DNA of 64,000 nt from Actinomycetes bacterium (GCA_021828055.1 JAKATH010000001.1:16707-80706); one strand, 5' to 3'. Counted from the stretch's first letter, positions 3,262-63,426 are shown. The notes: generated by a model from the sequence alone, not told the origin. Numbers and translations: made by a program.

Positions 3262-4734
3262 TCAGCCGCTGGACGCCGCGCCGGCGGGTCCCGCCGGCGC
3301 CGCGGGCGCCGCCGGCGCCGCGTCCGCCACGGGCGCCGCGCGCAGCGTCTGCACGCGGATCGCGAGCCGGGAGCGGTCCACGTCGAGCCTCCGCACGAAC
3401 CGCTCCACCTGCTCGGTGAGGGGCACAGGGCCTGCCCCGCCCGGCGTCGTCCGCCGGACCACCGGCACGCCGGGCTCGAGCAGCTGCGCCCCGGCGTCAC
3501 CGAGGTCCGGGTGCGCCTGGACGAGCTCGACGAGCGGAACGTGACGTGCGGTCGACTCGCGCACGAGGCCGGCGACGAGCGCGTGGGCCTGGCGGAACGG
3601 CGTGCCGCGCGCGACGAGGAGCTCTGCGAGGTCGACGGCGGCCGACGTCGGACCGTCGGCCGCCGCCTGCATCCTCTCCTGGTGCCACTCGACCGTCGCG
3701 TAGAGGCCCGCCAGCGCGCGGAGCGTCGCGCGCACCTGCGCAACCGCGTCGAACAGCGGCTCCTTGTCCTCCTGGAGGTCGCGGTTGTACGCGAGCGGGA
3801 GGCCCTTCAAGGTCGTCAGCATCCCGGTGAGATGGCCGACCAGCCTGCCGGCCTTCCCTCGGGCGAGCTCCGCCACGTCGGGGTTCTTCTTCTGGGGCAG
3901 CATCGAGCTGCCGGTCGCGTACTGGTCCGCGAGCGTGCAGAACCCCCACTCCTCGCTCGACCAGAGCACGATCTCCTCGCCCATCCGGGAGAGATGGACT
4001 CCGAGCAGCGCGAGGTCGAACAGGGCCTCCGCCACGAAGTCGCGGTCGCTCACCGCGTCGAGCGAGTTGTCGAAGCGCGAGGCGAAGCCGAGCTGCTCGG
4101 CGACGAAGTCCGGGTCGAGCGGGAGCGAGGAGCCCGCGAGGGCGCCCGCGCCGAGCGGTGACACGTCGAGGCGCTCGACGGTCGAGACGAGCCGGTCGAC
4201 GTCTCGTGCGAGCGCCCACCCGTGAGCGAGCAGGTGGTGCGCGAGCAGCACCGGCTGCGCCCGCTGAAGGTGGGTGTAGCCCGGGAGATAGGCGTCCCCC
4301 GCCTCCGTGGCGCGTCGCAACAGCACCTCTTGGAGCGCGACGACCACTCCTGCGACGTCCAGCAGCGAGCGGCGCGACCACAGCCGGAGGTCGGTCGCCA
4401 CCTGGTCGTTGCGGCTGCGGCCCGTGTGCAGCTTGGCGCCAAGGTCGCCGCAGAGCTCGATGCACCGCCGCTCGACCGCGGTGTGGATGTCTTCGTCTGT
4501 GGGCGCGAACGCGAAGACCCCTGCGGCGAACTCACCGGCGATCTGCGCGAGCGCGTCGATCAGCGACGAGGCCTCCTCGTCGGTGAGGATCCCCGCCTTC
4601 ACCAGCCCCCGCACGTGCGCCTTCGACCCTGCGATGTCGTCGACCGCCAGCTCCTTGTCGAACGACACGCTCACCGAGAGCTCGGCGACCTCGTCGGCCA
4701 TGCCCTCGGCGAACCGGCCCTGCCAGAGGGTCAC
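3262..4734 (-). CDS. argH: argininosuccinate lyase
   Basis: MTLWQGRF N-terminus, fumarate-lyase signature GSSMLPQKKNPD. ATG overlaps the argG stop (ATGA). Ala/Pro-rich repetitive C-terminal tail. Confidence 0.95.
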   Translation of the reverse strand: MTLWQGRFAEGMADEVAELSVSVSFDKELAVDDIAGSKAHVRGLVKAGILTDEEASSLIDALAQIAGEFAAGVFAFAPTDEDIHTAVERRCIELCGDLGAKLHTGRSRNDQVATDLRLWSRRSLLDVAGVVVALQEVLLRRATEAGDAYLPGYTHLQRAQPVLLAHHLLAHGWALARDVDRLVSTVERLDVSPLGAGALAGSSLPLDPDFVAEQLGFASRFDNSLDAVSDRDFVAEALFDLALLGVHLSRMGEEIVLWSSEEWGFCTLADQYATGSSMLPQKKNPDVAELARGKAGRLVGHLTGMLTTLKGLPLAYNRDLQEDKEPLFDAVAQVRATLRALAGLYATVEWHQERMQAAADGPTSAAVDLAELLVARGTPFRQAHALVAGLVRESTARHVPLVELVQAHPDLGDAGAQLLEPGVPVVRRTTPGGAGPVPLTEQVERFVRRLDVDRSRLAIRVQTLRAAPVADAAPAAPAAPAGPAGAASSG

Positions 4735-5948
4735 GACTCCGCGCGCCCCTCACCCTGGCGCGCCGCCCACGTCGCGATGCCGAGGCCCCACAGCCGGACG
4801 AACCCCTCTGCGTCCTCGTGGTGGAAGGCGTCCCCGCTGTCGTAGGTGGCGAGGCTCCGGTCGTAGAGCGCGACCGGGCTCCGCCGGCCGACCACGAAGC
4901 CCGCGCCCGGCGGCGAGAACCGCAGCTTGACCTCGCCGGTCACGTGCCGCTGGGACTCCGTCATGAAGGCGTCCAGCGCCTGCTTGAGCGGCGAGTACCA
5001 CATCCCGTCGTAGACGAGCTCCGCCCACCGCGGCTCGAGGCGCGCCTTCTCGTGCTGGAGGTCGCGCTCCAAGGTGAGGTCCTCCAGGTCCGCATGGGCC
5101 ATCAGCAGGGCGAGCGCGCCCGGGGCCTCGTAGATCTCTCGGCTCTTGATCCCGACGCGGCGGTTCTCGACCATGTTGAGCCGGCCGAAACCGGTCGAGC
5201 CCGCGAGACGCCCCAGCGCGACGACGAGGTCGTCGCCGGCCAGTCGCTCCCCGTCCAGCGAGACCGGCACGCCCTGCTCGAAGCCGACGACGACCTCGAC
5301 CGGCGAGCTCGCCGTGATCCTCGTCATCGTGAAGATGTCCTCGGGAGGGTCCACCCACGGGTCTTCGAGCACGCCGCACTCGATCGACTTGCCCCAGAGG
5401 TTCTCGTCGATCGAGTACACCTTCTCCTTGGTCACGGTGATGGGGATGTCCCATTTCGCCGCGTACTCGACCGATTGCTCACGGGTGAGGCCCCACACGC
5501 GTGCGGGCGCGATCACGTCGAGGTCGGGGGCAAGGGCACGGGTCGCGACCTCGAAGCGGACCTGGTCGTTGCCCTTCCCGGTGCAGCCGTGCGCGACCGC
5601 GTGGGCACCGTGGTCGCGAGCGGCGCGCACCAGGTGGCGAACGATGACGGGGCGGGAGAGCGCGGAGACGAGGGGGTACTTGCCTTCGTAACGGGCGTTC
5701 GCGCGCACGGCGGCGAAGCAGAACTCCTCGGCCATCTCCTGGCGGGCGTCGACCACGATCGCTTCGGCAGCGCCGGCTGCGAGCGCGCGCTGGCGAATCG
5801 CCTCCCAGCTGTCCGAGGTCGCGTCGGCCTCCTGGCCGACGTCGACCGCGACCGCGATGACCTCGGCGTCACGGTTCTCGATGAGCCACCTCACCGCGAT
5901 CGAGGTGTCGAGACCCCCGCTGTACGCAAGCACGACTCGCCGCATCAT
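4731..5948 (-). CDS. argG: argininosuccinate synthase
   Basis: MMRRVVLAYSGGLDTS P-loop N-terminus. Start set at ATG 5948, preceded by GAGGAGG and in ATGA overlap with the argR stop. The Arg-rich upstream extension of the track ORF is rejected. Confidence 0.93.
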   Translation of the reverse strand: MMRRVVLAYSGGLDTSIAVRWLIENRDAEVIAVAVDVGQEADATSDSWEAIRQRALAAGAAEAIVVDARQEMAEEFCFAAVRANARYEGKYPLVSALSRPVIVRHLVRAARDHGAHAVAHGCTGKGNDQVRFEVATRALAPDLDVIAPARVWGLTREQSVEYAAKWDIPITVTKEKVYSIDENLWGKSIECGVLEDPWVDPPEDIFTMTRITASSPVEVVVGFEQGVPVSLDGERLAGDDLVVALGRLAGSTGFGRLNMVENRRVGIKSREIYEAPGALALLMAHADLEDLTLERDLQHEKARLEPRWAELVYDGMWYSPLKQALDAFMTESQRHVTGEVKLRFSPPGAGFVVGRRSPVALYDRSLATYDSGDAFHHEDAEGFVRLWGLGIATWAARQGEGRAES

Positions 5949-6496
5949 TCCTCCTCGTCTGCGCCGGTGCCCTCGTCTGCGCCGGTGCCCTCGTCTGCGC
6001 CGGTGCCCTCCCGACCGTTCGGCCCAAGGTCGAGCCCTGCGAAAGCTGCGAGGCGCTCCGCGACGTCGCGGGCACGGTGGCTCTCGGCGACCACCACGAG
6101 CAGGGTGTCGTCGCCTGCAACGGTCCCGACGACGCCGTCGAGCCCGCTCCGATCCACAGCCGATGCTACGACATGCGCGCAGCCCGGCGGCGTGCGCAGC
6201 ACGACCAGGTTCTGCGACGTCGCGAGGTCCACCGCCCACTCCCCGAGCACCCGCCGCAGGTGGTCCATCGGGGCCACCTGCTGGGTCGGCAGATCAGGAA
6301 GGGCGTACGCGGTCTCCCCACCGGGCAGGCGGACCTTCTGGGCGCCCAGCTCCTCCAGGTCCCGCGACACCGTCGTCTGGGTCGCCTCGACGCCCTCGGC
6401 AGCCAGCAGCTCGACGAGGATCTGCTGGCTCCCCACCGCCTGGTGCTCCAAGAGGCGCGCGATCCGGTGCTGGCGCTGGTTCTTGCCGAGCTTCAC
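5945..6496 (-). CDS. argR: arginine repressor
   Basis: Winged-helix N-domain (QTTVSRDLEELG) and C-domain GTVAGDDTLLVV. GTG 6496 is in GTGA overlap with the argD stop. C-terminal EGTGAD x3 repeat. Confidence 0.9.
   Translation of the reverse strand: MKLGKNQRQHRIARLLEHQAVGSQQILVELLAAEGVEATQTTVSRDLEELGAQKVRLPGGETAYALPDLPTQQVAPMDHLRRVLGEWAVDLATSQNLVVLRTPPGCAHVVASAVDRSGLDGVVGTVAGDDTLLVVVAESHRARDVAERLAAFAGLDLGPNGREGTGADEGTGADEGTGADEEE
5954..6007. repeat. perfect tandem repeat, 18 bp x3
   Basis: CTCGTCTGCGCCGGTGCC x3. Encodes EGTGAD x3 at the argR C-terminus and ends 6 nt before the argG start codon. Confidence 0.95.
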
Positions 6497-7722
6497 GGGC
6501 CGACCTCCCCCGGCGCGGCGGCCCCCGAGCCGCCGACCTCGTCCAGCGCGGCGGCCCCCGAGCCGCCGACCTCGTCCAGCGCGCCGTCCAGGAGGCCGAG
6601 CGCCTCGTCGAGCTCGACGTCCTCCACGAGCAGCGAGGGCGCGAGGCGCAGCGTGTCCGTGCGGACAGCGTTCACGAGGAGCCCGCGAGCGAGCGCGGCA
6701 GCCGCGACCTCGGCCGCGCTCGGCGAGGAGAGCTGCGCTGCGAGGAGCAGCCCCGCGCCTCGCACCTCGGTCACGCCGGGAACCCGCCGGAGCCCGGCGG
6801 CGAGCCGTGCGCCTGCCCGGCGGGCCCTGGTGCAGACGTCCTCGCGCTCCATCACCTCGAGCGTCGAGCGAGCCGCGGACATCGCCAGCGGCTGGCCCCC
6901 GAAGGTCGTCGCATGGTCGCCCGGCCCGAAGGCGGCCGCCACCTCGGCGCTCGCCCAGCAGGCCCCCACCGGGACGCCGTTGCCGAGCGCCTTCGCCATC
7001 GTGACCACGTCGGGGCGGAGGTGCTGCGCCTGGAAGGCGAACCAGCGCCCGGTCCGGCCCAGTCCCGTCTGGACCTCGTCGCACATGAGCAGCACCCCGC
7101 GCTCGGTGCACAGCCGTCGCAGTCCCGCCAGGTAGTCCGAAGACGGGACGACGACGCCGCCCTCTCCCTGGATCGGCTCGACCAGCACCGCGCCGACCCG
7201 GGCCGGGTCGAGCGCGGCGGCCATCGCGTCGAGGTCGTCGTAGGGCACGTGGAGGAAGCCCTCGGGCAGCGGCTCGAAGGGGACGTGCTTTGCCGGCTGG
7301 CCCGTCGCCGTCAAGGTGGCGAGGGTCCGGCCGTGGAAGGAGCCCCACGTCGACACCACGACGTGGCGGCCGCGCCCTGCCCAACGGCGCGCGAGCTTCA
7401 AGGCGCACTCGTTCGCCTCGGCTCCCGAATTGCAGAAGAAGACCTGGCCGCCCGCAGGATCGTCCCCGCCTCCGACGAGCCGGTCGATGGTCTCAGCCAC
7501 CTGGGGCGCGAGCACGTTGCCGTAGAGGTTGGACACGTGCAGGAGCGTCGCAGCCTGGTCCGACAGCGCGCGGGCCACGTCGGGGTGGGCATGCCCGAGC
7601 GACGTCACCGCGAGCCCCGAGACGAAGTCGAGGTACCGCCGCCCCTCGGTGTCGAAGAGCACGCTCCCCTCGCCCCGCACGAAGACCACCGGGACGGGCG
7701 CGTACGTGTCCATCAGCGACAC
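6493..7722 (-). CDS. argD: acetylornithine aminotransferase
   Basis: Class-III aminotransferase motifs FCNSGAEANE and DEVQTGLGRTG. GTG 7722 has GGTGGAGG 7 nt upstream (alternative starts 7779 and 7713). C-terminal LDEVGGSGAAA x2. Confidence 0.9.
   Translation of the reverse strand: MSLMDTYAPVPVVFVRGEGSVLFDTEGRRYLDFVSGLAVTSLGHAHPDVARALSDQAATLLHVSNLYGNVLAPQVAETIDRLVGGGDDPAGGQVFFCNSGAEANECALKLARRWAGRGRHVVVSTWGSFHGRTLATLTATGQPAKHVPFEPLPEGFLHVPYDDLDAMAAALDPARVGAVLVEPIQGEGGVVVPSSDYLAGLRRLCTERGVLLMCDEVQTGLGRTGRWFAFQAQHLRPDVVTMAKALGNGVPVGACWASAEVAAAFGPGDHATTFGGQPLAMSAARSTLEVMEREDVCTRARRAGARLAAGLRRVPGVTEVRGAGLLLAAQLSSPSAAEVAAAALARGLLVNAVRTDTLRLAPSLLVEDVELDEALGLLDGALDEVGGSGAAALDEVGGSGAAAPGEVGP
6515..6580. 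repeat. perfect tandem repeat, 33 bp x2
   Basis: GCGGCGGCCCCCGAGCCGCCGACCTCGTCCAGC x2. Encodes LDEVGGSGAAA x2 at the argD C-terminus. Confidence 0.95.
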
Positions 7723-7753
7723 GAGCGGACCTCCACCGGTCGCCCCGACCGGG

Positions 7754-10802: not shown

Positions 10803-10803
10803 C

Positions 10804-10841
10804 GGTGCAAGTATACACAGACAACCGCATATCTATGCAAA
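10804..10841 (-). promoter_or_regulatory. tandem ARG boxes (ArgR operator) overlapping a TATACT -10 box just upstream of argC
   Basis: AT-rich island in GC-rich DNA. Minus strand reads ATTTGCATAGATATGCGG-TT-GTCTGTGTATACTTGCAC, with cores TGCATAgaTATGCg (10826-10839) and TGTGTAtaCTTGCA (10806-10819) 20 bp centre to centre. TATACT lies 7 nt before ATG 10802. Confidence 0.6.
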
Positions 10842-10897
10842 TCGCCGGTCGCTCGGCAACCTCGCGGCTGCAGTCGATCGGTCAGCGGGCCGGCCCG

Positions 10898-13474
10898 TCA
10901 GCGAAGCGCCGCACCGGTGTCGGCGGCAGCGGCGTCGATGGCCCGCCGGCGGAGCCGCCCGACCTCCTCGTCGGTGAGCGTTCGGTCCAGCGCTGCGAAC
11001 CGGAGCCGGTAGGCGAGGCTCCGGTGGCCCTCAGGGACCCCGGGGCCGCGGTACACGTCGAACAGCACGACCGACTCGAGAAGCCCCCCGTCCCCCTCGC
11101 CGGCACCGCCGGCCTCCCGGACGCCCCGGACCTCGCCGGCCTCCCGGACGCCGCGGACCGCGCCGGCACCGCCGGCCTCCCGGACGCCGCGGACGCCGCG
11201 GACCAGTGCCGCCTCGACCCGGGCGGCGGGCACGGTGTCGGCGACCACGAGCGCGACGTCCACGTCGGCGGAGGGAAACCGGCTGAGCGCGCGGGCCTGG
11301 TCGGGCCGCCTCGGCGTGACCGACGGGTCGAGCAGCCGCCCGAGGTCCACCTCGAGCCAGCCGATCCGGCCGTTCTCTGCCGGGTGCCCGAGCGTCTCGG
11401 CGACCGCGGGGTCCACCTCCCCGACCGCCCCGATCGTCGTGCCCCCCGCGCCGGCCCCCCCCGCCGCCACCAGCAGCGCCGAGCGCGTCGGATGGAGGCC
11501 GGGCACCGACCCGTCGGCCACCAGCTCGACCGGCTCGAGCCGCAGGGCGTCCGCGAGCACCCGCCATGCGGCAAGGGCGCTGCGCGCGTCGTCGCCGTCG
11601 CTCGCGAGCACCGACGAGAGGAGCTCGCGCTCTGCGGGCAGCACCGCCGTCTCCGACCCCGATGCGCCGCCCCGCGCCGTGCGGGCCCCGGCGTCGGGGT
11701 GGGAGAAGACGATGCCGATCTCGAAGAGCCTGACCCCGCCCTGCCGGCGGTTCGCGTTCCGTGCGAGCGCGCGCACGAGCCCCGGGAGCATCGAGCGGCG
11801 GAGCCACGCCTCCTCCTTGGCGATCGGGTTCGACACCTCGACGGCGGCACCGGTCAGTCCCATCGCCACGTGGTCGGCGTCGTCGACCAGGCTCGGCGTC
11901 CACGCCTCGAGCCCGCCCACACCGCACATCGCGTCGCCGACCAGGCGTCGCTCGCGCTGGTAGCGCGTGAGCCCGCCCGGCTCCGGCCACGACGGCCGGT
12001 GACGCGGGATCCGCGAGTAGCCGTAGGTCCGGGCGATCTCTTCGATGACGTCGTCGACGCCGTGCGGCGCCGGGCGGACGTCAGGGCGGTTGGTCGGGAC
12101 GGTCACCATGAGCCCGTCGTCTCTCGTCTCGGCGCCGAAGCCGAGCGGCTCGATCAGCGCCGCCGCCTCTTCGGCGTCGATGCCGACCCCGAGGACCGCG
12201 CGCACGCGCCGGGACGAGACCAAGATCCGCTCGGGCGCGGGCACTTGGCCGCGCACGTCCAGCTTGCCGGTGGCCGTCGGTGCCCCGACCAGCTCGCAGA
12301 AGCGGTCCACGGCGCGGTCGATCCCCCACGGATCGCACCCCCGCTCGAAACGCGCGGACGCCTCGGTGCGCAGCCCGAGCCGCTTCGAGGTCCGGGCGAT
12401 CGCCATGGGCGAGAAGTACGCCGCCTCGAGCAGCACCCGCGTCGTCGAGTCGGAGATCTCGCTCGACTCGCCGCCCATGATCCCTCCGATCCCCACCGCG
12501 GTCCCCTCCGCGTCGCAGATGAGGCAGTCCTCGCCCGTGTCGCCGAGCCCTCGGCCAGGGGTCCCGAGGGTTCGCTCGACGCCGTCCAACGTGACGAGCT
12601 TCTCGCCCGGCCGCGCCCGCCGGACGACCAGCCCGGCACCTGCCAGGCGGTCGAGGTCGTAGGGGTGCGTCGGCTGCCCCAGCTCGAGCATCACGTAGTT
12701 CGACGCGTCGACCACGCCGCTGATCGGGCGCATGCCCGCGAGCAGCAGCCGTCGTGCCAGCCAGCGCGGCGACGGGGCGACGCGCACCCGGTCGAGGACG
12801 ACGGCCACCATGCGCGGGCACAGGTCCAGGTCCTCGACCTCGAGCGAGGCGAGGGAGGCGACCGGCGTCCCGAGGTCGGGCGCGGGCGCGGGAGCGGGCA
12901 GCGTGAACGGCAGCCGGAGCCTTCCGGCGAGGTCGCGGGCGACCCCGGCGATCGACCACGCGTCCGGCCGGTTGCCCTCGACCGTGATGTCGAAGACGAC
13001 GTCCGGCTCGACGCCGAGCGCCTCGGTGAGCGGGACGCCCGGACGTGCGCCCTCGACGTCGTTCAGCACGAGGATGCCTTCGTGGTCGTCGGACAGGCGG
13101 AGCTCGCGGGCGGAGCAGAGCATGCCGTTGGACGTCGCGCCCTTCATCTTGCGGCGCTCGATCCGGAAGTGGCCCGGGAGGACCGCGCCGACCGGCGCGA
13201 GGGGGACGAGGTCGCCCGGCGCGAAGTTCCACGCCCCGCAGACCACCTCGAGCGGGCCCGCACCGGCGTCCACCGTCACGAGCCGGATGCGGTCTGCGCC
13301 GGCGATGGCGTCCACGCCCTCGACCAGCGCCACCACGACGTCGCCGAGGCCCTCGCCGACGTGCTCCACGCCTTCGACGACGAGCCCCAGGTCGTCGAGG
13401 CTCGCTGCGAGCGCGGTGGGATCGGACGTGTCGAACGGCGCGAAGTCGCGCAGCCAGCTGAGCGGGGCCTTCAT
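10898..13474 (-). CDS. pheT: phenylalanine--tRNA ligase beta subunit
   Basis: 858 aa. MKAPLSWLRDF N-terminus, tRNA-binding domain (GAWNFAPGD..KMKGATSNGMLCSARELRL), B3/4, B5 and C-terminal FDX-ACB domains. Confidence 0.95.
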   Translation of the reverse strand: MKAPLSWLRDFAPFDTSDPTALAASLDDLGLVVEGVEHVGEGLGDVVVALVEGVDAIAGADRIRLVTVDAGAGPLEVVCGAWNFAPGDLVPLAPVGAVLPGHFRIERRKMKGATSNGMLCSARELRLSDDHEGILVLNDVEGARPGVPLTEALGVEPDVVFDITVEGNRPDAWSIAGVARDLAGRLRLPFTLPAPAPAPDLGTPVASLASLEVEDLDLCPRMVAVVLDRVRVAPSPRWLARRLLLAGMRPISGVVDASNYVMLELGQPTHPYDLDRLAGAGLVVRRARPGEKLVTLDGVERTLGTPGRGLGDTGEDCLICDAEGTAVGIGGIMGGESSEISDSTTRVLLEAAYFSPMAIARTSKRLGLRTEASARFERGCDPWGIDRAVDRFCELVGAPTATGKLDVRGQVPAPERILVSSRRVRAVLGVGIDAEEAAALIEPLGFGAETRDDGLMVTVPTNRPDVRPAPHGVDDVIEEIARTYGYSRIPRHRPSWPEPGGLTRYQRERRLVGDAMCGVGGLEAWTPSLVDDADHVAMGLTGAAVEVSNPIAKEEAWLRRSMLPGLVRALARNANRRQGGVRLFEIGIVFSHPDAGARTARGGASGSETAVLPAERELLSSVLASDGDDARSALAAWRVLADALRLEPVELVADGSVPGLHPTRSALLVAAGGAGAGGTTIGAVGEVDPAVAETLGHPAENGRIGWLEVDLGRLLDPSVTPRRPDQARALSRFPSADVDVALVVADTVPAARVEAALVRGVRGVREAGGAGAVRGVREAGEVRGVREAGGAGEGDGGLLESVVLFDVYRGPGVPEGHRSLAYRLRFAALDRTLTDEEVGRLRRRAIDAAAADTGAALR
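11084..11203. repeat. imperfect tandem repeat block inside pheT
   Basis: GCCGGCCTCCCGGACGCC occurs three times. Encodes VRGVRGVREAGGAGAVRGVREAGEVRGVREAGGAGEGDGG. Confidence 0.8.
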
Positions 13475-13521: not shown

Positions 13522-14634
13522 TCAGAGCAGCCTCAGGAACCGGACGTCGTTCTCGGTCAGGATGCGCATGTCCGCGATGACGTGACGCATCTGCGCGCAC
13601 CGGTCGATGCCGAAGCCGAAGGCGAACCCGGACCACTCTTCGGGGTCGATGCCCACGGCCTCGAACACGGCCGGGTCCACCATGCCGCATCCGGCGAGCT
13701 CGACCCAGCCCGTCGACGAGCACGTCCGGCAGCCCCCGCCACGACAGATCGTGCACGTGACCTCCACCTCCGCGGAGGGCTCGGTGAACGGGAAGTAGCC
13801 TGGCCGCAGCCGCGCGTGGATGTCGGGACCGAAGTACGCCGTCGTGAACGTCTCGATGGTCCCGGCCAGGTCGGCGAAGGTGATGCCCCGGTCGACGACG
13901 AGCCCCTCCATCTGGTGGAAGACCGGCAGGTGCCGCGCGTCGGCGGTCTCCCGGCGGTAGCAGCGACCCGGGATCACCGCGTGGACGGGTGGCTGCCGGT
14001 CCTCCATGAGGTGGATCTGCACCGGGGAGGTGTGCGTCCGCAGCACGACGGTCTCGGGCTGGCCGAGCTCGAGGTAGAAGGTGTCCCACATGCTGCGCGC
14101 GGGGTGCGCAGGCGGGATGTTCAGCGCCTCGAAGTTGTACCAGTCGGTCTCCGCCTCGGGCCCCTCCTCGACCGTGAAGCCCATTGCGACGAACACGTCC
14201 TCGAGCTCGCGCCGGGTCTGGGTCACGAGGTGGAGCCGGCCCCGGGTGACGGCGGAGCGGACCTCGTCCGCGGTCACCTCGGTCAGGTCGAGTCGGTCGC
14301 GCCCGAGCATCAGGGCGCGCTCGGCCGCGGCGAGCTCCTCCCCCCGCGCCGCGGCCAGCGCCTCGAGGCGCGCCCGGGCGTCGTGGAGGGCCTTGCCGGC
14401 CGCACGCCGTGCGTCGGGGTCGAGCGCCGCGAGGTGCCGGTGCGCCGTCGCCAGCGCGCTCCGCTTCCCCAGCACGGCCGTCTCGACCTCCGCCAGCGCG
14501 GCGCTCGACGCGGCACCGGCCAGCGCGCCCGCGGCCTCGAGCTCGAGCCGGTCCACCTCCTCGCCCGGGCCGCTCCGGTCGCTCCGGCCGCTCGGGCCGC
14601 TCCGGTCGCCCGGGCCGCTCGGGGTTCGGGTCAT
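13522..14634 (-). CDS. pheS: phenylalanine--tRNA ligase alpha subunit
   Basis: Class II motifs FTEPSAEVEV, GCGMVDPAV and GFAFGFGIDR. ATG 14634 is in ATGA overlap with the upstream methyltransferase stop. Repetitive N-terminus. Confidence 0.93.
   Translation of the reverse strand: MTRTPSGPGDRSGPSGRSDRSGPGEEVDRLELEAAGALAGAASSAALAEVETAVLGKRSALATAHRHLAALDPDARRAAGKALHDARARLEALAAARGEELAAAERALMLGRDRLDLTEVTADEVRSAVTRGRLHLVTQTRRELEDVFVAMGFTVEEGPEAETDWYNFEALNIPPAHPARSMWDTFYLELGQPETVVLRTHTSPVQIHLMEDRQPPVHAVIPGRCYRRETADARHLPVFHQMEGLVVDRGITFADLAGTIETFTTAYFGPDIHARLRPGYFPFTEPSAEVEVTCTICRGGGCRTCSSTGWVELAGCGMVDPAVFEAVGIDPEEWSGFAFGFGIDRCAQMRHVIADMRILTENDVRFLRLL
14563..14622. repeat. imperfect short repeats at the pheS 5' end
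   Basis: GGGCCGCTCCGGTCGC x2 with related filler. Encodes SGPGDRSGPSGRSDRSGPG. Confidence 0.7.
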
Positions 14635-15497
14635 CGGGGCATCGTAGATCGACGCCGGCGGAGGGCTTCGAAGCAGATCACCGCGCACGCGATCCCGACG
14701 TTGAGCGACTCCGCGCGTCCGGCCATCGGGATCCCGACGGAACCGTCGAGCTCCAGCCCGTCGGGCAGCCCCCACGCCTCGTTGCCGAGCACGATCGCGC
14801 TGCGGACGGTCCAGTCGACCGCCGCGTAGTCCTCTCCGCCGCGCGCCACCGCGCCGAGGCGCCGGTAGCCGGACCGGCCCAGCCGCCGGAGCACCGTGGC
14901 CGCGTCCTCGCCGAGGACGACCGGCACGTGGAAAAGCGACCCCGCCGACGCGCGGACGGTCTTCGGGTTGTAGGGATCGACCGCGCCGGCGCACACCACG
15001 ACGGCGCCCACTCCGGCAGCATCCGCGGTGCGGAGCACGGTGCCGGCGTTGCCGGGGTCCCGGACGTCGGCCAGCACCACGACGAGCTGCGCCTCCGCGG
15101 GCACCTCGGGCACGTCGAGCGCGGGGAAGACCGCCAGCACCGGCTGGGGCGTGGCGGTGGAGGCGACCCGCTCGATCACCCCCGGGGCGAGCTCGTGGAC
15201 GCGGGCGCCGGCGGCCAGCGCGAGCCTCACCACCTCGGCGACGCCTGCTGCGGCGGACCCGCCGCCCGCGCCGCCCGCGCCGCCCGCGCCGCCCCCGCCG
15301 GTCGCGCCGCCCGCGCCGGACGCCGCCCCTGCCGCGACGTACAGCGACTCGGGCACCGCGCCGGCGAGCATGCCGGTGCGGACGACCTCGATCCCCTCCG
15401 CGACGAACGCACGCTCCGCCCGGCGGGCGGCACGGCGGTTGAGCAGGCGGCGGACGCGGCGCACCCGCTGGTGCGAGTACGCGAGGCCGAGGCTCAG
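14631..15497 (-). CDS. TrmH/SpoU-family RNA 2'-O-methyltransferase
   Basis: SpoU motifs [33 protein letters not shown] and [22 protein letters not shown]. The start is uncertain: CTG 15497 in CTGA overlap with the rplT stop, or GTG 15464. Confidence 0.8.
15261..15296. repeat. tandem repeat, 9 bp x4
   Basis: GCCGCCCGC x3 plus GCCGCCCCC. Part of a Gly/Ala-rich insert in the TrmH-family gene. Confidence 0.85.
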
Positions 15498-17225: not shown

Positions 17226-17465
17226 TCACGCGGGCTCGACCGCGGGCCAGCCGACGTCGAGCTTGGTGACCTGGACCGCCTCCATCCGTCCGAGGTGACC
17301 GGGCGCGACCTCGAAGGCGACCCGGGTCCCGACGTCGATGGCCCGACTGCCGTCCGTGATCGCCGTGCAATGGAACGACCACGTGCCACCGACGTCGCCG
17401 GCGACGACGCCGAGCCCACGACGGTCGTCCCATTCCGACACCACGCCTACGCGAAGCGGCCCCAT
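17226..17465 (-). CDS. cold-shock-domain (OB-fold) protein
   Basis: GVVSEWDDRRGLGVVAGDVGGTWSFHCTAITDGSRAIDVGTRVAFEV. Start taken at ATG 17465. The in-frame upstream (T/V)ES repeat up to TTG 17579 could be an N-terminal extension. Confidence 0.65.
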   Translation of the reverse strand: MGPLRVGVVSEWDDRRGLGVVAGDVGGTWSFHCTAITDGSRAIDVGTRVAFEVAPGHLGRMEAVQVTKLDVGWPAVEPA

Positions 17466-17528
17466 GCTCTCGACGCTCTCGGTGCTCTCGACGCTCTCGG
17501 TGCTCTCGGTGCTCTCGACGCTCTCGGT
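17466..17528. repeat. tandem repeat, 9 bp x7 (two unit variants)
   Basis: GCTCTCGAC / GCTCTCGGT in order ABABBAB, abutting ATG 17465 of the cold-shock-domain gene. In frame as (T/V)ES x7. Confidence 0.95.
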
Positions 17529-17659
17529 GCTGCAGGCACGGCTCGGCCCGCGCCCACCTCGCACCGTGGAGAACCGCAAGTCCGATCCAGAACGATCGGT
17601 GGAGATCCGACGGTACCACGGGACCTGCGCTGTCGAAGGCCCAGCAGGTGTCGCGTCAC

Positions 17660-19223: not shown

Positions 19224-20494
19224 CCGGCCCCCAGGTCGTCGAAGCCGTCGAAGCCGTCGAGGCCGTCGAGGGCGTCGAGGCCGTCGAGGCCGTCGAGGCC
19301 GTCGATCAGGTGCCCCATGCGCTCACGCTTCGTGCGGAGGTAGGCGAGGTTCTCGGGGTTCGGCACGGGCTGCAGGGGCACCCGCCCGACGATCTCGAGC
19401 CCGAAGCCGTCGATGCCGCCGTACTTGGACGGGTTGTTCGTCATGAGCCGCATGGTGGTGACGCCGAGGTCGACCAGGATCTGCGCGCCGATGCCGTACT
19501 CGCGCGTGTCGACGGGAAGGCCGAGCGCGACGTTCGCGTCCACGGTGTCGTGGCCCTGCTCCTGGAGGCGGTACGCACGGATCTTGTGCGCGAGGCCGAT
19601 GCCTCGCCCTTCGTGGCCGCGCAGGTACACGACCACCCCCCGGCCCTCCTCGGAGATGAGGTCCATCGCCTCCCGCAGCTGCGTGCCGCAGTCGCAGCGC
19701 AACGAGCCGAACACGTCGCCGGTCAGGCACTCCGAGTGCACGCGCACGAGCACGTCCGGCGCGATCTCTCCTCTCACGAGGGCGAGGTGCTGCTCGCCGT
19801 CGAGCACCGAGGCGTAGACGACCGCCCGCCAGTCCCCGACCTCCGTGGGGATCCGCGCCTCGGAGACGCGGCGCACGAGCTTCTCCGTCCGCCGGCGCCA
19901 CCGGATCAAGTCCCCGATCGAGATGAGCGGGAGCCCGTGGCGCTCGACGAACCGCTCGAGGTCGGCAAGCCGCGCCATCCCGGACTTGTCCTCGCTCACG
20001 ATCTCGCACAGCACGCCCGCCGGCGTGAGCCCGGCCGCCCGGGCGAGGTCGACGGTCGCCTCGGTGTGGCCGCCGCGCTTCAGCACCCCGCCCGGGCGGG
20101 AGCGGAGCGGGAAGATGTGGCCCGGACGGTTCAGGTCCTCGGGGCGGGTCGAAGGGTCGATGAGCGCCCTGATCGTGGCGGCGCGGTCGGCGGCGGAGAT
20201 ACCGGTCGTGGTCGTGCGCCGCGCGTCGACGCTCACCGTGAAGGCGGTCCGCTGCGACTCGGTGTTCTCGCTGACCATCAGCGGCAGCTGGAGCTCGTCG
20301 GCGCGCTCGGGGGAGACCGGCACGCAGATCACACCGGAGGTGTGCGCGAGGAAGAAGGCGATCGTCTCGGGCGTGGCGGCCTCGGCCGCCATCACGAGGT
20401 CGCCCTCGTTCTCGCGGTCCTCGTCGTCGACGACGACGACCATCCCGAGCCTGCCGATGGCATCGATCGCCGCTTCGACGGCGGAGAAGGGCAT
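19220..20494 (-). CDS. ribBA: bifunctional 3,4-dihydroxy-2-butanone-4-phosphate synthase / GTP cyclohydrolase II
   Basis: DDEDRENEGDLV (DHBPS half) and HSECLTGDVFGSLRCDCG (GCHII half). C-terminal GLD-type 9-bp repeat tail. Confidence 0.93.
   Translation of the reverse strand: MPFSAVEAAIDAIGRLGMVVVVDDEDRENEGDLVMAAEAATPETIAFFLAHTSGVICVPVSPERADELQLPLMVSENTESQRTAFTVSVDARRTTTTGISAADRAATIRALIDPSTRPEDLNRPGHIFPLRSRPGGVLKRGGHTEATVDLARAAGLTPAGVLCEIVSEDKSGMARLADLERFVERHGLPLISIGDLIRWRRRTEKLVRRVSEARIPTEVGDWRAVVYASVLDGEQHLALVRGEIAPDVLVRVHSECLTGDVFGSLRCDCGTQLREAMDLISEEGRGVVVYLRGHEGRGIGLAHKIRAYRLQEQGHDTVDANVALGLPVDTREYGIGAQILVDLGVTTMRLMTNNPSKYGGIDGFGLEIVGRVPLQPVPNPENLAYLRTKRERMGHLIDGLDGLDGLDALDGLDGFDGFDDLGAG
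19239..19301. repeat. tandem repeat, 9 bp x7
   Basis: GTCGA(A/G)G(C/G)C units. Encodes the DGLDGLDGLDALDGLDGFDGFD tail of RibBA, 16 nt upstream of the ribH start. Confidence 0.95.
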
Positions 20495-23281: not shown

Positions 23282-23302
23282 CGCCCGGTCCCCGCTCGCT
23301 CA
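23259..23302. repeat. perfect tandem duplication, 22 bp x2
   Basis: GCGCCCGGTCCCCGCTCGCTCA x2, between def and the conserved part of fmt. Confidence 0.95.
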
Positions 23303-23308
23303 GCGCTC

Positions 23309-23363
23309 GATCACCCGGCGATCACCCGGCGAGCACGCGGCGATCACCCGGCGAGCACGCGGG
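23309..23363. repeat. tandem duplication, 22 bp x2.5, of the def 3' end including its stop codon
   Basis: GATCACCCGGC + GATCACCCGGCGAGCACGCGGC + GATCACCCGGCGAGCACGCGGG. The real def stop is 23344-23346. Confidence 0.95.
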
Positions 23364-48116: not shown

Positions 48117-48193
48117 CCCTCCAGGTCCGCCTCGGTCGCCGGCGCCACCTGAGGCGCCCTGGCCGTTTCGGTCACCGGCGCCACCTGGGTCAT
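48113..48193 (-). CDS. candidate 26-codon bridging micro-ORF (MTQVAPVTETARAPQVAPATEADLEG)
   Basis: ATG 48193 is in ATGA overlap with the tyrS stop, and its TGA is in GTGA overlap with the next gene's start. GC3-rich, and contains an in-frame 36-bp-period duplication. Confidence 0.35.
   Translation of the reverse strand: MTQVAPVTETARAPQVAPATEADLEG
48131..48190. repeat. imperfect direct repeat, 36-bp period
   Basis: CTCGGTCGCCGGCGCCACCTGAGG vs TTCGGTCACCGGCGCCACCTGGGT (20/24), inside the tyrS-downstream micro-ORF. Confidence 0.8.
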
Positions 48194-55865: not shown

Positions 55866-55910
55866 GGCCGACCACGCTATCGACGCGCCGCCGCCCCTAC
55901 CATCGGCGCC

Positions 55911-57947
<2,037 letters not shown>

Positions 57948-57997
57948 GCTCGTCTGGCCGCCCGGCGCGTCGACCGGGTGCGCATCGAGGAGGTGAG

Positions 57998-58948
57998 GTG
58001 CCCGGCACGAGACGCCAGGGCCTGCATGCGCCAGCGCACGCGCGAAGAGGGACCGCGACGCGGCGCGGCGGGTCCGTCTCGGGCGAGGACGCCGGCGGCG
58101 GCGTGTCCGTCTCGGGCGAGGACGTCGGCGGCGGGTCCGTCCAGGGCGAGGACGCCGGCGGCGGCGTGTCCGTCTCGGAGGAGCAGCCGGCGGCGACCGC
58201 CGGCGCTGCACGCTCGAGGGAGACCCCGGCGGGATCCTCCTCGCGAGCCGCAGGGCCCCGCCGCGGCCGCGCGCTCCTGCGGGATGTCGTGCACCGGGAC
58301 CGGACGCTCACCGCGGGGGGCGCCGAGCTCCGGCTCCTCGTGCTCGCTTGCACGCCGGACGACACGACCGCCGTCGACCTCGCATCGGGTTCACTGGTAC
58401 GGCTCCGCGTCCCATGGCCGGCCGGCCACGCGCCGGACCTCGCCCTCTTCGACGTGGTGGAGGCCACCTTGGCCGACGACCCCGAGTCCGACGACCTCGC
58501 CCAACCCGAGGCGGTGACGGTCGCCGCGCCCCCACGCCACGTCGGGTCGCTGCAGGGGCGGCGGGTGCGCAGGGTGCTCGCGCGCCTCGTGACCACCCGC
58601 GACGACCCGCTGCTCGGGTTCCACGGGCCGTCCGCACCCTACTGGGGCTTCCACGGGCTCCGGCCTTCCCTGGCGCTGATCCGGCCGGCGCGCGGACCGC
58701 AGCTCCTGCGCCGCGGCGCCGACGGCTCGACCTGGGTCCGCTTCGGCTGGGCGCGCGACGACGTCTGGCTTCCCGTCGAGGACGGCCGCGCGGCCCGGGC
58801 GCTCGCCGCGTCGCGCCGCGACCGCCTGTCGGGGAAGGCCCTCGCGGCGGCGCTCGGCTTCTCTCCGCACTACCTCCTCGTCGCGCTGAGCGGTCCTCGC
58901 GGCGGCCACTGCTACAAGATCTGCGCGGCGGTGCTGCCGAAGGGCTGA
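57998..58948 (+). CDS. hypothetical protein, repeat-rich N-terminus + uncharacterised C-terminal domain
   Basis: High-GC3 frame. GTG 57998 lies 4 nt after GAGGAGG (alternative GTG 58289, downstream of the repeats). The C-terminal domain ...PYWGFHGLRPSLALIRP...GGHCYKICAAVLPKG is not recognised. Confidence 0.6.
   Translation: MPGTRRQGLHAPAHARRGTATRRGGSVSGEDAGGGVSVSGEDVGGGSVQGEDAGGGVSVSEEQPAATAGAARSRETPAGSSSRAAGPRRGRALLRDVVHRDRTLTAGGAELRLLVLACTPDDTTAVDLASGSLVRLRVPWPAGHAPDLALFDVVEATLADDPESDDLAQPEAVTVAAPPRHVGSLQGRRVRRVLARLVTTRDDPLLGFHGPSAPYWGFHGLRPSLALIRPARGPQLLRRGADGSTWVRFGWARDDVWLPVEDGRAARALAASRRDRLSGKALAAALGFSPHYLLVALSGPRGGHCYKICAAVLPKG
58072..58180. repeat. tandem repeat, 33/30/33 bp plus a partial copy
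   Basis: GTCCGTCTCGGGCGAGGACGCCGGCGGCGGCGT-type units. Encodes SVSGEDAGGGV-like repeats. Confidence 0.9.
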
Positions 58949-59010
58949 CGCGAGCCCCACCGAAGCGCAGACGCGAGGCCCGCGGAAGGGCTGGCCGGCC
59001 CTCCCCGAAC

Positions 59011-59064
59011 GTCCGCGACCCCCGCAGGCAGGCGAGCGTCCGCGACCCCCGGAGGCAGGCGAGC
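59011..59064. repeat. tandem repeat, 27 bp x2 (1 mismatch), in a convergent intergenic gap
   Basis: GTCCGCGACCCCCGCAGGCAGGCGAGC / GTCCGCGACCCCCGGAGGCAGGCGAGC. Confidence 0.95.
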
Positions 59065-59072
59065 CCTGGACG

Positions 59073-60486: not shown

Positions 60487-61683
60487 TCACGGCTTCGGCG
60501 CCCACGCGAGCAGGGGGACGAACATCTCGTCCGGCGTGAGCGAGCCGTGACGGCAGACGAGGCGCTGCTCGCCGGTGTCGGCAGGGTCCAAGAAGGCAGT
60601 CGCTGCGAACGGCACGAGAGCGACGTCCCCGAGCCGCGCGCGCACGTCCGCGGCGGGGGTGCCGCCGAGCCAGCCGTCGTCGACGATCTGCTCGACGCCT
60701 CGCACCCACGCGACGTCGCCGTACCGCTCGGAGGCGACGGCGAGGAGGTCGTCTTTCGCGCCAGGCCGCGCGTGCAGCCACCGGAACCGACCCTCTCCCG
60801 AGAGCAGGGTGACGGCAGCCATCACGTCGGCGCCGAACACTTCGATCGACGGGCCGACGTCGACCTGTCCGTGGTCGGCGGTCACGACCAGCACCGCTCC
60901 GGGCGGGAGCACCTCGAGGAGGTCGCCGACCAAACGGTCCGCGGCACGAAGCTCGGCGTCGTAGTGCTCGCCCAGCCCGCACGCGTGCGCAGTGCGGTCG
61001 ATGCCGTCGTAGTAGGCGTAGACGAAGGGCGCGCCGCGCTCGAGGAGCCTCCGCACCTCGACGACGAGGCCGGCGGGCGTGCGCCAGCCGTAGAGGGGTG
61101 AGTCGCCGAGGTGGGCCGCGGTGAACCCGGTCGCGGCGTACTCGTTCCTGGAGACGACGGGCGTCGGTGAAGGGCTCGCCGGGAACGCCCGGCGCGGCTG
61201 GAAGGTCCGAGGGGGGACGAGCCGGCGCCCGTCGCGCTCCCCGAGCCGCCACCCGAGCACGTTCAGGATCTCGTCGCCCACGGCGACGCGGTAGCCGACC
61301 ACGCCGTGCTCCGACGGAGGGAGCCCGGTCGTCAGGCTGGTGAGCGCCGAAGCGGTCGTGCTGGGTGCGACCGACGTGACGGTCGTGCCCGTGCCGCTGC
61401 CGAGCACGGGCGCCAGACGCGAGGCCCTCGCGTCGAGCTGGCGCGAGCCGAGGCCGTCGAGCACGAGGAGCACGACCTGACGGGCTCCATGGACCGGCTC
61501 GGGAAGCCAGTCGGCACGGGGTCCTTCGGCACGGGGTCCTTCGGCACGGGGTCCTTCGGCCGGCTCGTCGGCCGCGCCGACCTCGGCGAGCAGGAGACGG
61601 ACGACCTCGGTCAGGCAGCGGCCGCCGAAGTCCGGCAGCACCGGCTCGGGCCCCGTTGCGGCCGGCACCGGGCTTGCGACCAT
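60487..61683 (-). CDS. alkaline phosphatase superfamily protein (nucleotide pyrophosphatase/phosphodiesterase-like)
   Basis: VLLVLDGLGSRQL, ...PSTTASALTSLTTGLPPSEHGV, ...TADHG. Start at internal ATG 61683. N-terminal AEGPR x3 repeat. Confidence 0.8.
   Translation of the reverse strand: MVASPVPAATGPEPVLPDFGGRCLTEVVRLLLAEVGAADEPAEGPRAEGPRAEGPRADWLPEPVHGARQVVLLVLDGLGSRQLDARASRLAPVLGSGTGTTVTSVAPSTTASALTSLTTGLPPSEHGVVGYRVAVGDEILNVLGWRLGERDGRRLVPPRTFQPRRAFPASPSPTPVVSRNEYAATGFTAAHLGDSPLYGWRTPAGLVVEVRRLLERGAPFVYAYYDGIDRTAHACGLGEHYDAELRAADRLVGDLLEVLPPGAVLVVTADHGQVDVGPSIEVFGADVMAAVTLLSGEGRFRWLHARPGAKDDLLAVASERYGDVAWVRGVEQIVDDGWLGGTPAADVRARLGDVALVPFAATAFLDPADTGEQRLVCRHGSLTPDEMFVPLLAWAPKP
61511..61560. 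repeat. perfect tandem repeat, 15 bp x3.3
   Basis: TCGGCACGGGGTCCT x3 plus TCGGC. Encodes AEGPR x3 near the phosphodiesterase-like N-terminus. Confidence 0.95.
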
Positions 61684-61793: not shown

Positions 61794-62319
61794 GAGAGTG
61801 TCCACCCGCGGCGACTACGCGTGCCGAGCCCTGCTCTCGCTGGCCTTGCACGGCGCCACGTCGACACCCACCTCAGTCCGCGACATCGCGGAACGGACCG
61901 GGCTCCCTCAGCCGTACCTCGAGCAGATCCTCCTCGCGCTGAAGGGAGCGGGGCTCGTCCGCTCCAAGCGCGGCGTGGGAGGCGGCTACGTGCTCGCACG
62001 CGAGCCGGCCGACATCACCCTCGCACAGGTGGTGTCGGCGGTCGACGGACCGATCGTGGCCGGCGACTTCGGTGAGCCGCACGAGAACGGCGCCTGCGAC
62101 CACGAGGGGCAGTGCGTCCTCCTCGCGGTGTGGGCCGAGGTCGGAACCACCATGCGCGAGCACCTCCAGTCGTTCACGCTCGCCGACATGGTCCGTCGCG
62201 CGCGAGGAACGCGCTCGGAAACGCCGCCTCCCGCGCCGGGACCGACGTTCGACGACGACCGGGGCCAGGGGGGAGCCGCTCTCGAAGGCATGCTCGGATC
62301 CCTCGCCGGGCCCGGGTAG
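61792..62319 (+). CDS. Rrf2-family transcriptional regulator
   Basis: MRVSTRGDYACRALLSLAL...SVRDIAERTGLPQPYLEQILLALKGAGLVRSKRGVGGGY. Cys residues at ...NGACDHEGQC.... Confidence 0.92.
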   Translation: MRVSTRGDYACRALLSLALHGATSTPTSVRDIAERTGLPQPYLEQILLALKGAGLVRSKRGVGGGYVLAREPADITLAQVVSAVDGPIVAGDFGEPHENGACDHEGQCVLLAVWAEVGTTMREHLQSFTLADMVRRARGTRSETPPPAPGPTFDDDRGQGGAALEGMLGSLAGPG

Positions 62320-62418
62320 GCCCGGCTCGGTCGGGCCCGGCTCGGTCGGGCCCGGCTCGGTCGGGCCCGGGCTCGGCCAGGCCCCAGCTCGGTCGGGCCC
62401 CAGCTCGGCCGGGCCCGG
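62319..62418. repeat. tandem repeat, 15 bp x3 perfect followed by ~4 degenerate copies
   Basis: GGCCCGGCTCGGTCG x3 (62319-62363), then GGCCCGGGCTCGGCCAG, GCCCCAGCTCGGTCG and so on. Starts at the last base of the Rrf2 stop codon. Confidence 0.9.
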
Positions 62419-63038: not shown

Positions 63039-63047
63039 ACCTGAACG

Positions 63048-63426
63048 TCACCATCCCCGGCGGCCGCCTGCAAACCGCCCAGCGCCCAAGGGACGCGCCC
63101 GCAGGCCGGGTGAGCGCCTGGAGTCCCGCTCGGGGATGGGGATGGCCGGGTCCTCCCCGGTGCCGGGCGGAGCGAGCCGCCCCGGCCCGAACCGGTCGTT
63201 CCGGGCTCCGACCTGGCCGTTCGAGCACGGAATGACACCGAGGGCATGGGCGTTGTACCCGAACGGGTAGGGCTGTCCTGTGGAGCGAGTCGAGCCCCAC
63301 CCGCCGCTTCCGGGCGGAGACGTAGCCGATCCAGACCACCACGACGATCCAGACCACCACGACGATCCAGAAGAGAGCGACGAAGCACCCGACCATGAGC
63401 ACCTTCACCAAGAGCAGCGCAGCCAC
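63048..63426 (-). pseudogene. possible frameshifted gene for a small membrane-anchored protein
   Basis: The N-terminal TM helix frame ([39 protein letters not shown]) loses GC3 bias near 63275-63285. The +1 frame then shows ~85-90% GC3 and stops at TGA 63048-63050, 9 nt before the phosphatase GTG. Confidence 0.3.
63328..63371. repeat. perfect tandem repeat, 18 bp x2.4
   Basis: GATCCAGACCACCACGAC x2 plus GATCCAGA, 24 nt upstream of the sigma ATG. In frame (WIVVVV x2) in the antisense hydrophobic ORF. Confidence 0.95.

Follow-up and report, generated by a model that had tools for sequence, protein, structure and literature searches.

Numerous, still-changing short tandem arrays in the housekeeping genes of an uncultured Acidimicrobiia lineage

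Why should compact operons of housekeeping genes be studded with short tandem duplications? The question is raised by a 64,000-nucleotide stretch of DNA from an uncultured Acidimicrobiia bacterium (GCA_021828055.1, JAKATH010000001.1:16707-80706), analysed here at its full length and called the window, in which a reading made from the sequence alone (the sequence-only reading) had listed 18 head-to-tail arrays and had seen in them the trace of a duplication or slippage process. The window has a G+C content (GC) of 73.6%; its operons are compact, lie mainly on the minus strand and carry housekeeping genes, and its coding share is nearly total, with 60.1 of the 64 kb coding by our own gene calls, which use codon usage and GC at third codon positions (GC3), and 3,872 bases (6%) non-coding. 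Tandem Repeats Finder (TRF), run on the whole window with overlapping rows merged, finds arrays at 16 of the 18 places and with the periods that had been given. Altogether there are 16 merged arrays with a score of at least 80 and 24 with a score of at least 60; fourteen are strict arrays (score of at least 80, period of 9–60, at least 85% matches), and TRF puts the identity between copies at 92–100% in eleven arrays. As set out below, the process behind them is real, statistically solid, lineage-specific, ongoing and mechanistically ordinary, and it is the rate that is unusual; the unusual aspects of the window are the density of its arrays and the housekeeping genes that host them.

The arrays exceed both chance and what related loci carry. 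Forty dinucleotide-preserving shuffles gave 0.1 arrays at a score of at least 80 and 1.4 at a score of at least 60, against 16 and 24 in the window, and codon shuffles within genes gave 4.1 arrays at a score of at least 80, roughly the number of intergenic arrays, which that procedure leaves unshuffled. For the comparison with relatives, we retrieved ribBA loci from 80 species representatives and argG loci from 80 metagenome contigs, and limited the density comparison to the 57 loci with a GC of at least 68%, 861 kb in total. These loci hold 24 strict arrays, or 0.28 per 10 kb, as against 14 in 64 kb, or 2.2 per 10 kb, in the window, an excess of about 8-fold (Poisson P = 7e-9). The nearest GTDB species representatives are metagenome-assembled genomes of uncultured Acidimicrobiia or Acidimicrobiaceae, with a RibBA identity of 80–82%. 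In the closest syntenic relative, L003 (RibBA 82% identical, 74% GC), the 12.9 kb shared with the window contain no short-unit array scoring at least 60, compared with five arrays scoring at least 96 in the window. The arrays of L003 that do score at least 80 were considered as comparable and rejected, as they are 138-bp-period repeats of a single non-syntenic gene.

Orthologues of the host genes lack the arrays. We compared the window's proteins with those of 16 relatives, whose RibBA is 65–82% identical to the window's, using tblastn; the pheT, TrmH-family, ribBA and coaBC arrays face a gap or a missing tail wherever a relative covers the site, two TrmH-family orthologues excepted. The PheT orthologues covering the site (L006, L009–L015 and L017) show a gap of 25–35 residues at the array, and about 22 residues are missing in most relatives at the TrmH-family array, where L011 and L015 have other sequence. 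The PheS N-terminus is present in some relatives and is non-repetitive there. In RibBA, the match in relatives stops at ...GHLLEGLD, and the window reads ...IDGLDGLDGLDALDGLDGFDGFDDLGAG; since the relatives' match ends at the very GLD that the window repeats as (GLD)n, a local ancestral GLD seed was expanded. Hidden Markov model (HMM) coordinates place the arrays outside the conserved protein cores: the HMM covers residues 4–153 of 183 in ArgR, with the repeat tail outside it, residues 2–385 of 409 in ArgD and residues 3–402 of 424 in RibBA, the Pfam DFP domain of CoaBC ends at residue 376 of 444, the PheS match begins at residue 69, and the Pfam domain of the phosphodiesterase-family protein begins at residue 70. 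Judged from these alignments, the arrays are lineage-specific.

The arrays are also still changing, and their copy numbers vary between co-occurring strains. The strain set consists of about 19 megahit contigs from at least five samples in the ENA, about 94–100% identical to the window, which we found by exact-protein look-up with array-free neighbouring genes; look-up of ArgG and RibH returned nothing, and neighbouring proteins served instead. Seven of the 15 arrays covered by these contigs differ by one to three whole units. In the 5' region of csp, a cold-shock-domain gene, L164 is without exactly 27 bp (17475–17501). In the phosphodiesterase array at 61511, L167 is without 15 bp (61511–61525) that L168 keeps, and in the array at 62319 one 15-bp unit (62319–62333) is absent from L167, L168 and L170, with variant arrays in L169 and L171. 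The array in the 5' untranslated region (UTR) of the sigma-factor gene, at 63327, is without 18 bp (63327–63344) in L169 and L170; the intergenic array at 59006 has 4.1 perfect copies in L174 against 2.2 in the window; and the ArgD tail has a single copy in L172, making ArgD 11 residues shorter, in a region where the copies are 6–8% diverged. Contigs with at least 97.9% identity to the window along their entire length depart from it in length only by whole array units or by a 3-bp (GCG)n step.

The ArgR tail shows most states. L172 has 6.2 copies there, encoding (EGTGAD)x6, as against 3.2 in the window, and L180, which is 98% identical in argG–argH, carries another perfect duplication, 33 bp x2.1, encoding (PKNATPGTAGT)x2; this makes three different states in strains at least 94% identical. 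The tail of L084 is of similar length and non-repetitive, and neither L084 nor L085 has an array in it. Different arrays in near-identical strains indicate that the ArgR tail is a recurrent target. A further perfect array, 18 bp x2.7, lies in the roughly 7.3 kb to the left of the window (L179 7739–7786, about 3 kb left of position 1), near the 5' end of a gene for an SBP_bac_5 solute-binding protein, and is one unit shorter in L178 (567 vs 561 residues).

The positions and unit lengths of the arrays carry an imprint of protein coding. All 11 clearly coding arrays scoring at least 80 have periods divisible by three (3n), as had been claimed for in-frame arrays, and ten of them lie within 41 residues of a protein end, where about 28% would be expected by chance according to our own estimate from gene and array coordinates (66 called genes, about 19,600 codons). 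Units that are not 3n (22, 22/11 and 23 bp) are found entirely or for the most part beyond a stop codon and involve just 1–6 terminal codons. The sequence-only reading had taken 22 bp as the only such unit and had missed the 23-bp array at 58937–58993, which begins in the last four codons (stop included) of the gene at 57998–58948 and continues into the spacer. The intergenic 6% of the window holds five of the 14 strict arrays.

The ends of the arrays bear a second kind of imprint. In all nine perfect or near-perfect stretches of at least two whole units of the array's own period, we found a residual partial copy of 3–9 nt (CCTC, GCGCG, GCT, GCGC, CGG, CGA, TCGGC, GGCCCGG and CGATCCAGA), compared with a chance extension that we estimate at about 0.9 nt. 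All nine thus have the form of n units plus a microhomology, the footprint expected if the first duplication arose between short direct repeats. Shorter alleles with the same flanks exist as well, namely the single-copy ArgD of L172 and the alleles one unit shorter at 17475, 61511 and 63327, which may be either ancestral or revertant. Variant units sit in neighbouring copies, as in CoaBC, where two GPAPHA units are followed by three GPAPDA units; two adjacent units of the ArgR tail in L172 depart from the window at one and the same position within the unit (5987 and 5969); and the array at 17465 has higher-order periods of 9, 18 and 27. Clustered variants, adjacent changes and higher-order periods together point to repeated rounds of duplication.

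Taken together, the window probably holds many independent, recent variable-number tandem repeats (VNTRs), formed by microhomology-flanked tandem duplication or slippage, filtered by selection and arising at a high, lineage-specific rate. Short segments of 9–36 bp, bounded by a few bases of GC-rich microhomology, would be duplicated head to tail through replication slippage or template switching, and the resulting arrays would then grow and shrink by whole units. The mutational input would be roughly blind to position, with purifying selection shaping what remains: in coding DNA, 3n units alone would survive, in termini, linkers or loops outside the conserved fold, and in the non-coding 6%, units of any length would survive, at a density about 8-fold higher. 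Position-blind input filtered in this way would give the 3n rule, the terminal position and the intergenic enrichment described above. As to the molecular mechanism, we infer slippage or microhomology-mediated duplication, and the excess over relatives points to a raised formation rate rather than weaker removal, both being possible. Microhomology-mediated tandem duplications (MTDs) are known to be reversible and to arise about 1000-fold more readily at long GC-rich microhomology (PMC8639346); slippage between direct repeats of less than 30 bp is the accepted explanation of many small variable segments in bacteria (PMC2884548). The duplication or slippage process proposed by the sequence-only reading is thus borne out by each comparison that had been suggested for it: density is above that of shuffles and of high-GC relatives, the arrays are missing in orthologues, near-identical strains differ by whole units, and the same arrays recur in other assemblies.

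Several observations weigh against this explanation or narrow it. Eight of the 15 covered arrays show no length variation (11095, 14548, 15260, 19233, 23259, 23308, 26890 and 38906): the pheT array is identical to the window in L165 and L172, the pheS and TrmH-family arrays in L164 and L165, the ribBA array in L164, the 22-bp def/fmt arrays and the coaBC array in L001, and the nusB array in L082 and L083. Instability is accordingly moderate, well below that of classical contingency loci. The independence of the strain contigs from the window is incomplete, one of them (L177) being 100% identical to it over 12.75 kb. The density is uneven, with seven strict arrays in 7–28 kb, one in 28–56 kb and four in 59–64 kb, and a genome-wide extent is extrapolated from the 64 kb and the roughly 7.3 kb beside them. 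Finally, the equally GC-rich L007, L008 (76%) and L086 (75%) have no or almost no arrays; as relatives of the same or higher GC are nearly array-free, GC-rich microhomology or composition alone does not explain the excess.

Two of the contigs tell more about the origin of the material. L177 (ERZ27237319; 12,751 bp) is 100% identical to the window over 46443–59193, is the only contig to cover the array at 58057, also identical there, and comes from a sample whose other contigs differ by single-nucleotide polymorphisms and array units. The window probably stems from the same environment or study as the ENA samples, with several strains co-existing there. L172 (ERZ27237319 k141_647185), compared with 4542–14564 of the window, is a mosaic, with one substitution across 7400–11900 and flanks that are 4–8% diverged, reflecting either recombination of diverged strains or a chimeric metagenome contig.

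What might have raised the rate in one lineage is a separate matter, on which we can offer a lead rather than a finding. Yeast rad27 mutants and Escherichia coli mutants in the Pol I 5'-nuclease accumulate genome-wide duplications of tens of base pairs between direct repeats of a few base pairs. By analogy, the Acidimicrobiia species could be a natural duplication mutator, with flap processing on the lagging strand, the restart of forks or end joining heritably altered, a proposal that we regard as speculative and rather unlikely. Candidates for such a flap-endonuclease-type defect would be the Pol I 5'-nuclease or FenA (the counterpart of yeast rad27); microhomology-flanked duplication would then be raised genome-wide, leaving both 5' UTRs and the tails of essential proteins with a standing length polymorphism open to selection. 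The 64-kb window itself holds no relevant replication or repair gene.

Among the rival explanations, the one that survives best takes the arrays for selected regulatory or adaptive devices, whose copy number tunes translational coupling or disordered acidic tails in the manner of contingency loci. Nine to ten arrays do lie within about 30 nt of a start (those of argG, argR, ribH, metK, the sigma-factor gene, csp, nusB, pheS and the fmt region), natural populations harbour different copy numbers, and the ArgR tail has gained two different arrays in 98%-identical strains. The sequence-only reading, which had proposed that copy number tunes coupling at operon junctions, was right about the geometry: the argD array stops 3 nt before the argR start, the argR array 5 nt before the argG ATG, the ribBA array 10 nt before the ribH start and the coaBC array 26 nt before the metK start. 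The tuning itself, however, finds no support. The 17 nt before the argG ATG (GACGAGGAGGAATGATG), which hold a Shine-Dalgarno-like run (GAGGAGGA) and a TGATG stop/start overlap, do not differ between the window, L172 and L180, whichever array stands upstream, and at least five arrays are far from any start, of which at least three lie between convergent genes (58937, 59006 and 62319) and two are internal (pheT and carB). The units share no motif that we could see by eye, and frame-preserving units of 9–36 bp cannot switch genes on or off. Compact operons, moreover, place C-terminal tails beside the next start by default, and the proximity of arrays to starts follows from this compactness together with the tolerance of tails for insertions. 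We therefore consider selected devices improbable, while an effect on coupling through mRNA structure may still operate.

A second rival holds that the density is ordinary for a 74% GC genome and that low-complexity tails rich in Gly, Ala, Pro and Asp merely look periodic. This is true of individual places. The argH tail, one of the 18 listed arrays, counts as low-complexity sequence and not as a recent array: the ArgH HMM match stops at residue 447 of 490, the tail is identical in strains L178, L179 and L180, and in L084, a 93% identical relative, it is of similar length, P/A-rich and non-repetitive. Parts of the TrmH-family, carB and pheS arrays are likewise degenerate, L084 has long non-repetitive tails at the same places, and some other high-GC loci, such as L037 and L022, reach 1–2 arrays per 10 kb. 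As a description of the window, however, the explanation is very improbable and largely refuted by the shuffles, which remove the arrays, by the low average of the 57 high-GC loci, by the near-identity of copies in eleven arrays and by orthologues without arrays. Only L035 exceeds the window in raw density, with 7.5 per 10 kb the highest TRF value of all loci; it was tried as a second case and rejected, as its arrays come from one related CCGCCG/Gly-rich coding repeat of PE_PGRS-like character, a different phenomenon.

That the arrays or their copy-number differences are artefacts of assembly or polishing is hardly credible, even though all data are metagenome assemblies, the L172 mosaic could be a chimeric contig and five of the seven variable arrays have more copies in the window, because no array reaches the length of megahit's last k-mer (k141, to judge from the contig names), so that a de Bruijn graph resolves them all, at least five other ENA samples yield contigs with the same arrays (ERZ27237319, ERZ27237313, ERZ27237336, ERZ27237159 and ERZ27236955), and differences run both ways, with fewer copies in the window at 5953 and 59006, and also between other samples, such as L167 and L168 at 61511.

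The arrays at three gene starts call for closer description. At the def–fmt junction, the sequence-only reading had noted that the start downstream of the 22-bp units looks broken, and it does. The first duplication (23308) copies the last def codons and the stop (RVLAG*), the extra copies being untranslated; the second (23259), unrelated to the first, lies between def and fmt, and its first copy puts a TGA in the fmt frame. From this in-frame TGA (23300–23302) to the conserved RLVYLGTP (LxxLGTP) motif there are 29 codons without ATG, GTG or TTG, whereas all 11 relatives examined have a canonical fmt start 2–19 codons upstream of the motif. The same state is found in the separate assembly L001. 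A GTG overlapping the def stop is in the fmt frame but runs into the TGA, and gene finders call the start at GTG 23182, which we take to be implausible, as it would presumably cost the Fmt fold its first beta-strand. A CTG in the fmt frame (23281–23279) is preceded by GGGGA at a 7-nt spacing. Candidate explanations, as far as the sequence goes, are a CTG start, read-through of the TGA or loss of expression. When we attempted to rebuild the ancestral junction by removing one copy of each duplication by hand, no combination gave a canonical, stop-free, in-frame start. Nearby, at 23228–23230, a 3-bp (GCG)n step with an adjacent base change distinguishes the window from L001; it is the sole indel outside the listed arrays among near-identical contigs.

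Two further arrays that had been read as terminal coding sequence may belong to leaders instead. In nusB, each 27-bp unit carries an in-frame GTG, which raises the possibility that the start codon itself was duplicated; gene callers pick the second GTG copy (141 residues), a 166-residue open reading frame (ORF) from GTG 39023 is also open, and the NusB domain begins at residue 43 of the long ORF. The nusB array may therefore be 5' UTR rather than coding. In the called csp gene, the array forms part of an N-terminal extension of 44 residues (17461–17579, minus strand). An ATG (17463) directly follows the array, the cold-shock (CSD) domain of the long ORF begins at residue 45, and most relatives show homology from residues 43–47 onwards, so that the array more likely lies in the 5' UTR than in an N-terminal extension.

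All repeat features are collected in Table 1.

Table 1. Short tandem arrays and related repeats of the window, with TRF period, copy number and match values.
Feature	Position	Strand	Repeat	Encoded sequence or residues	Among strains
argH C-terminal P/A-rich tail	3278..3340	-	weak 9-bp periodicity; 72% matches, score 68		
argR C-terminal tail	5953..6010	-	18 bp x3.2; 100% matches	(EGTGAD)x3	polymorphic
argD C-terminal tail	6499..6583	-	33 bp x2.6; 94% matches	ALDEVGGSGAA x2	polymorphic
pheT internal insertion	11095..11205	-	periods 27 and 36	VRGVREAGGAG-type units, residues 757–794	
pheS N-terminal extension	14548..14623	-	27 bp x2.8 or 9 bp x5.9	residues 4–29	
SpoU/TrmH-family methyltransferase, Gly/Ala-rich insertion	15260..15339	-	9 bp x6.6	residues 42–69	
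cold-shock-domain gene (csp) 5' region	17465..17531	-	9 bp x6.8 or 27 bp x2.4		polymorphic
ribBA C-terminal tail	19233..19305	-	9 bp x8.1; 92% matches	(GLD)n	
def–fmt second duplication	23259..23306	-	22 bp x2.2; 100% matches		
def 3' end duplication	23308..23362	-	22 bp x2.5 + 11 bp x5 sub-repeat		
coaBC C-terminal tail	26890..26981	-	18 bp x5.1; 95% matches, score 163	(GPAPHA)x2(GPAPDA)x3	
carB internal loop	33104..33194	-	periods 9 and 21; scores 46–76; moderately degenerate		
nusB 5' end	38906..39004	-	27 bp x2.3 + degenerate copies; 97% matches		
tyrS-downstream spacer repeat	48127..48187	.	two 25-nt copies, 88% alike, start-to-start spacing 36 nt		
316-residue protein	58057..58195	+	33 bp x4.4; 83% matches, score 187	residues 20–66	
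spacer between convergent genes	58937..58993	.	23 bp x2.5, non-3n; 79% matches, score 79		
intergenic, between convergent genes	59006..59064	.	27 bp x2.2		polymorphic
phosphodiesterase-family protein N-terminal region	61511..61560	-	15 bp x3.3; 100% matches	(AEGPR)x3	polymorphic
between convergent genes, 3' of Rrf2-family gene	62319..62418	.	15 bp x6.5; score 138		polymorphic
sigma-70-family gene 5' UTR	63327..63383	+	18 bp x2.5–3.2; 100% matches for 2.5 copies		polymorphic

Some entries need comment. Besides the argH tail, the other listed place that did not stand as an array is the one at 48.1 kb: TRF on the window makes no call at 48131–48190, and a direct-repeat search shows two spaced copies and no proper tandem array. 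The 316-residue protein that hosts the array at 58057 has no Pfam match. The array at 62319 begins at the last base of the stop codon of the Rrf2-family gene, and that at 63327 ends 11 nt before the ATG at 63395, with an in-frame TAG upstream and no start codon within it; sigma-70 domains are matched in the gene downstream. In the carB array, three of the 11 substitutions that separate L175 from the window over 4.1 kb fall at 33145–33166, without length change, the other eight clustering at the contig end, a distribution that suggests unit replacement or conversion within the array. In priA, the repeat at 24647–24703 (score 70) was tried as a recent duplication and rejected, as it is a conserved CxxC zinc-finger repeat found in all relatives; also inside priA, at 24092–24182 on the minus strand, ARAGORN calls a tRNA with undetermined anticodon, which we take as a false positive.

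The gene names given by the sequence-only reading all agree with HMM, Pfam and protein matches. The window carries argCJBD-argR-argG-argH; pheS and pheT; infC-rpmI-rplT and a SpoU/TrmH-family methyltransferase gene; hisG and the rib operon; rpe-fmt-def-priA-metK-coaBC; pyr and car genes; efp-nusB, aro genes and tyrS; and genes for an Rrf2-family regulator and a sigma-70-family protein. Our greedy gene call leaves a 1,067-bp gap (45738–46804) within 45451–46805, where a plus-strand ORF (45451–46410, 93% GC3) was dropped because it runs about 290 nt into the 5' end of a NifU-domain gene. Rfam at gathering thresholds gives no match in the 64 kb, intergenic arrays included, which leaves these arrays unexplained by any known RNA element; the same search gave neither a flavin mononucleotide (FMN) riboswitch close to the rib operon nor a ribosomal-protein leader close to infC-rpmI-rplT.

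The arrays matter beyond this one locus in several ways. They offer a natural example of the birth of disordered tails and linkers, in which a local seed is duplicated, expanded and then decays, and the passage from ...EGLD to (GLD)n in RibBA shows the first steps of such a birth. They show that essential housekeeping genes can exist in many length alleles within a bacterial population in the environment, and they are usable as strain markers for an uncultured lineage. They also hold a warning for gene callers, as the starts of nusB, csp and fmt are made ambiguous or duplicated by arrays. If the excess proves to be genome-wide and is traced to a change in replication or repair, the lineage would be a rare wild counterpart of laboratory duplication-mutator phenotypes.

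How do these arrays compare with known systems? A literature search for a repeat-rich state in housekeeping genes of Actinobacteria or Acidimicrobiia found nothing specific, which is no proof of novelty. A dispersed element family of the REP/BIME, MITE or MIRU-like kind looks unlikely, the units appearing unrelated by eye beyond trivial GC-rich codons. Repeat-protein genes, such as the PE_PGRS-like gene of L035 or the 138-bp repeats of L003, share the high TRF density, but there one or two genes carry a single related unit, whereas the window has about 18 unrelated units in about 18 places. Phase-variable contingency loci (Moxon-type simple sequence repeats) share repeat-mediated hypermutability and population length polymorphism. 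Their units of 1–8 nt, however, shift the reading frame or the promoter spacing, in contrast to the coding units of 9–36 nt seen here, all 3n, and they reside in surface, virulence and restriction genes rather than in genes such as arg, phe-tRNA ligase, rib, coaBC, carB, nusB, def/fmt, csp and sigma-factor genes; the window's arrays depart from contingency loci on both counts, unit size with frame shift and type of gene.

The resemblance is closer to the MTDs, which share GC-rich microhomology borders (3–9 nt here), reversibility and the tolerance of in-frame events in genes. MTDs have been described as rare subclonal variants in fission yeast, detected about 20-fold less often in E. coli (PMC8639346), whereas those in the window, often of more than two copies, are alleles that are common or fixed among wild bacteria of one population. 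In kind, the arrays are VNTRs or minisatellites, already known from loci used in multiple-locus VNTR analysis (MLVA), and not a new class of element: head-to-tail arrays with units of roughly 9–60 bp, whole-unit differences between strains, 3n units inside genes and slippage as the presumed mechanism are common to both. Legionella pneumophila Philadelphia, for comparison, has 26 intragenic tandem repeats genome-wide, seven of them polymorphic (PMC2639597). Against this background the window is denser, with about 11 arrays in 60 kb of coding sequence; its hosts are core housekeeping genes (argR, argD, pheS, pheT, ribBA, coaBC, carB and nusB) instead of surface or virulence genes; and its excess is confined to one lineage among equally GC-rich relatives.

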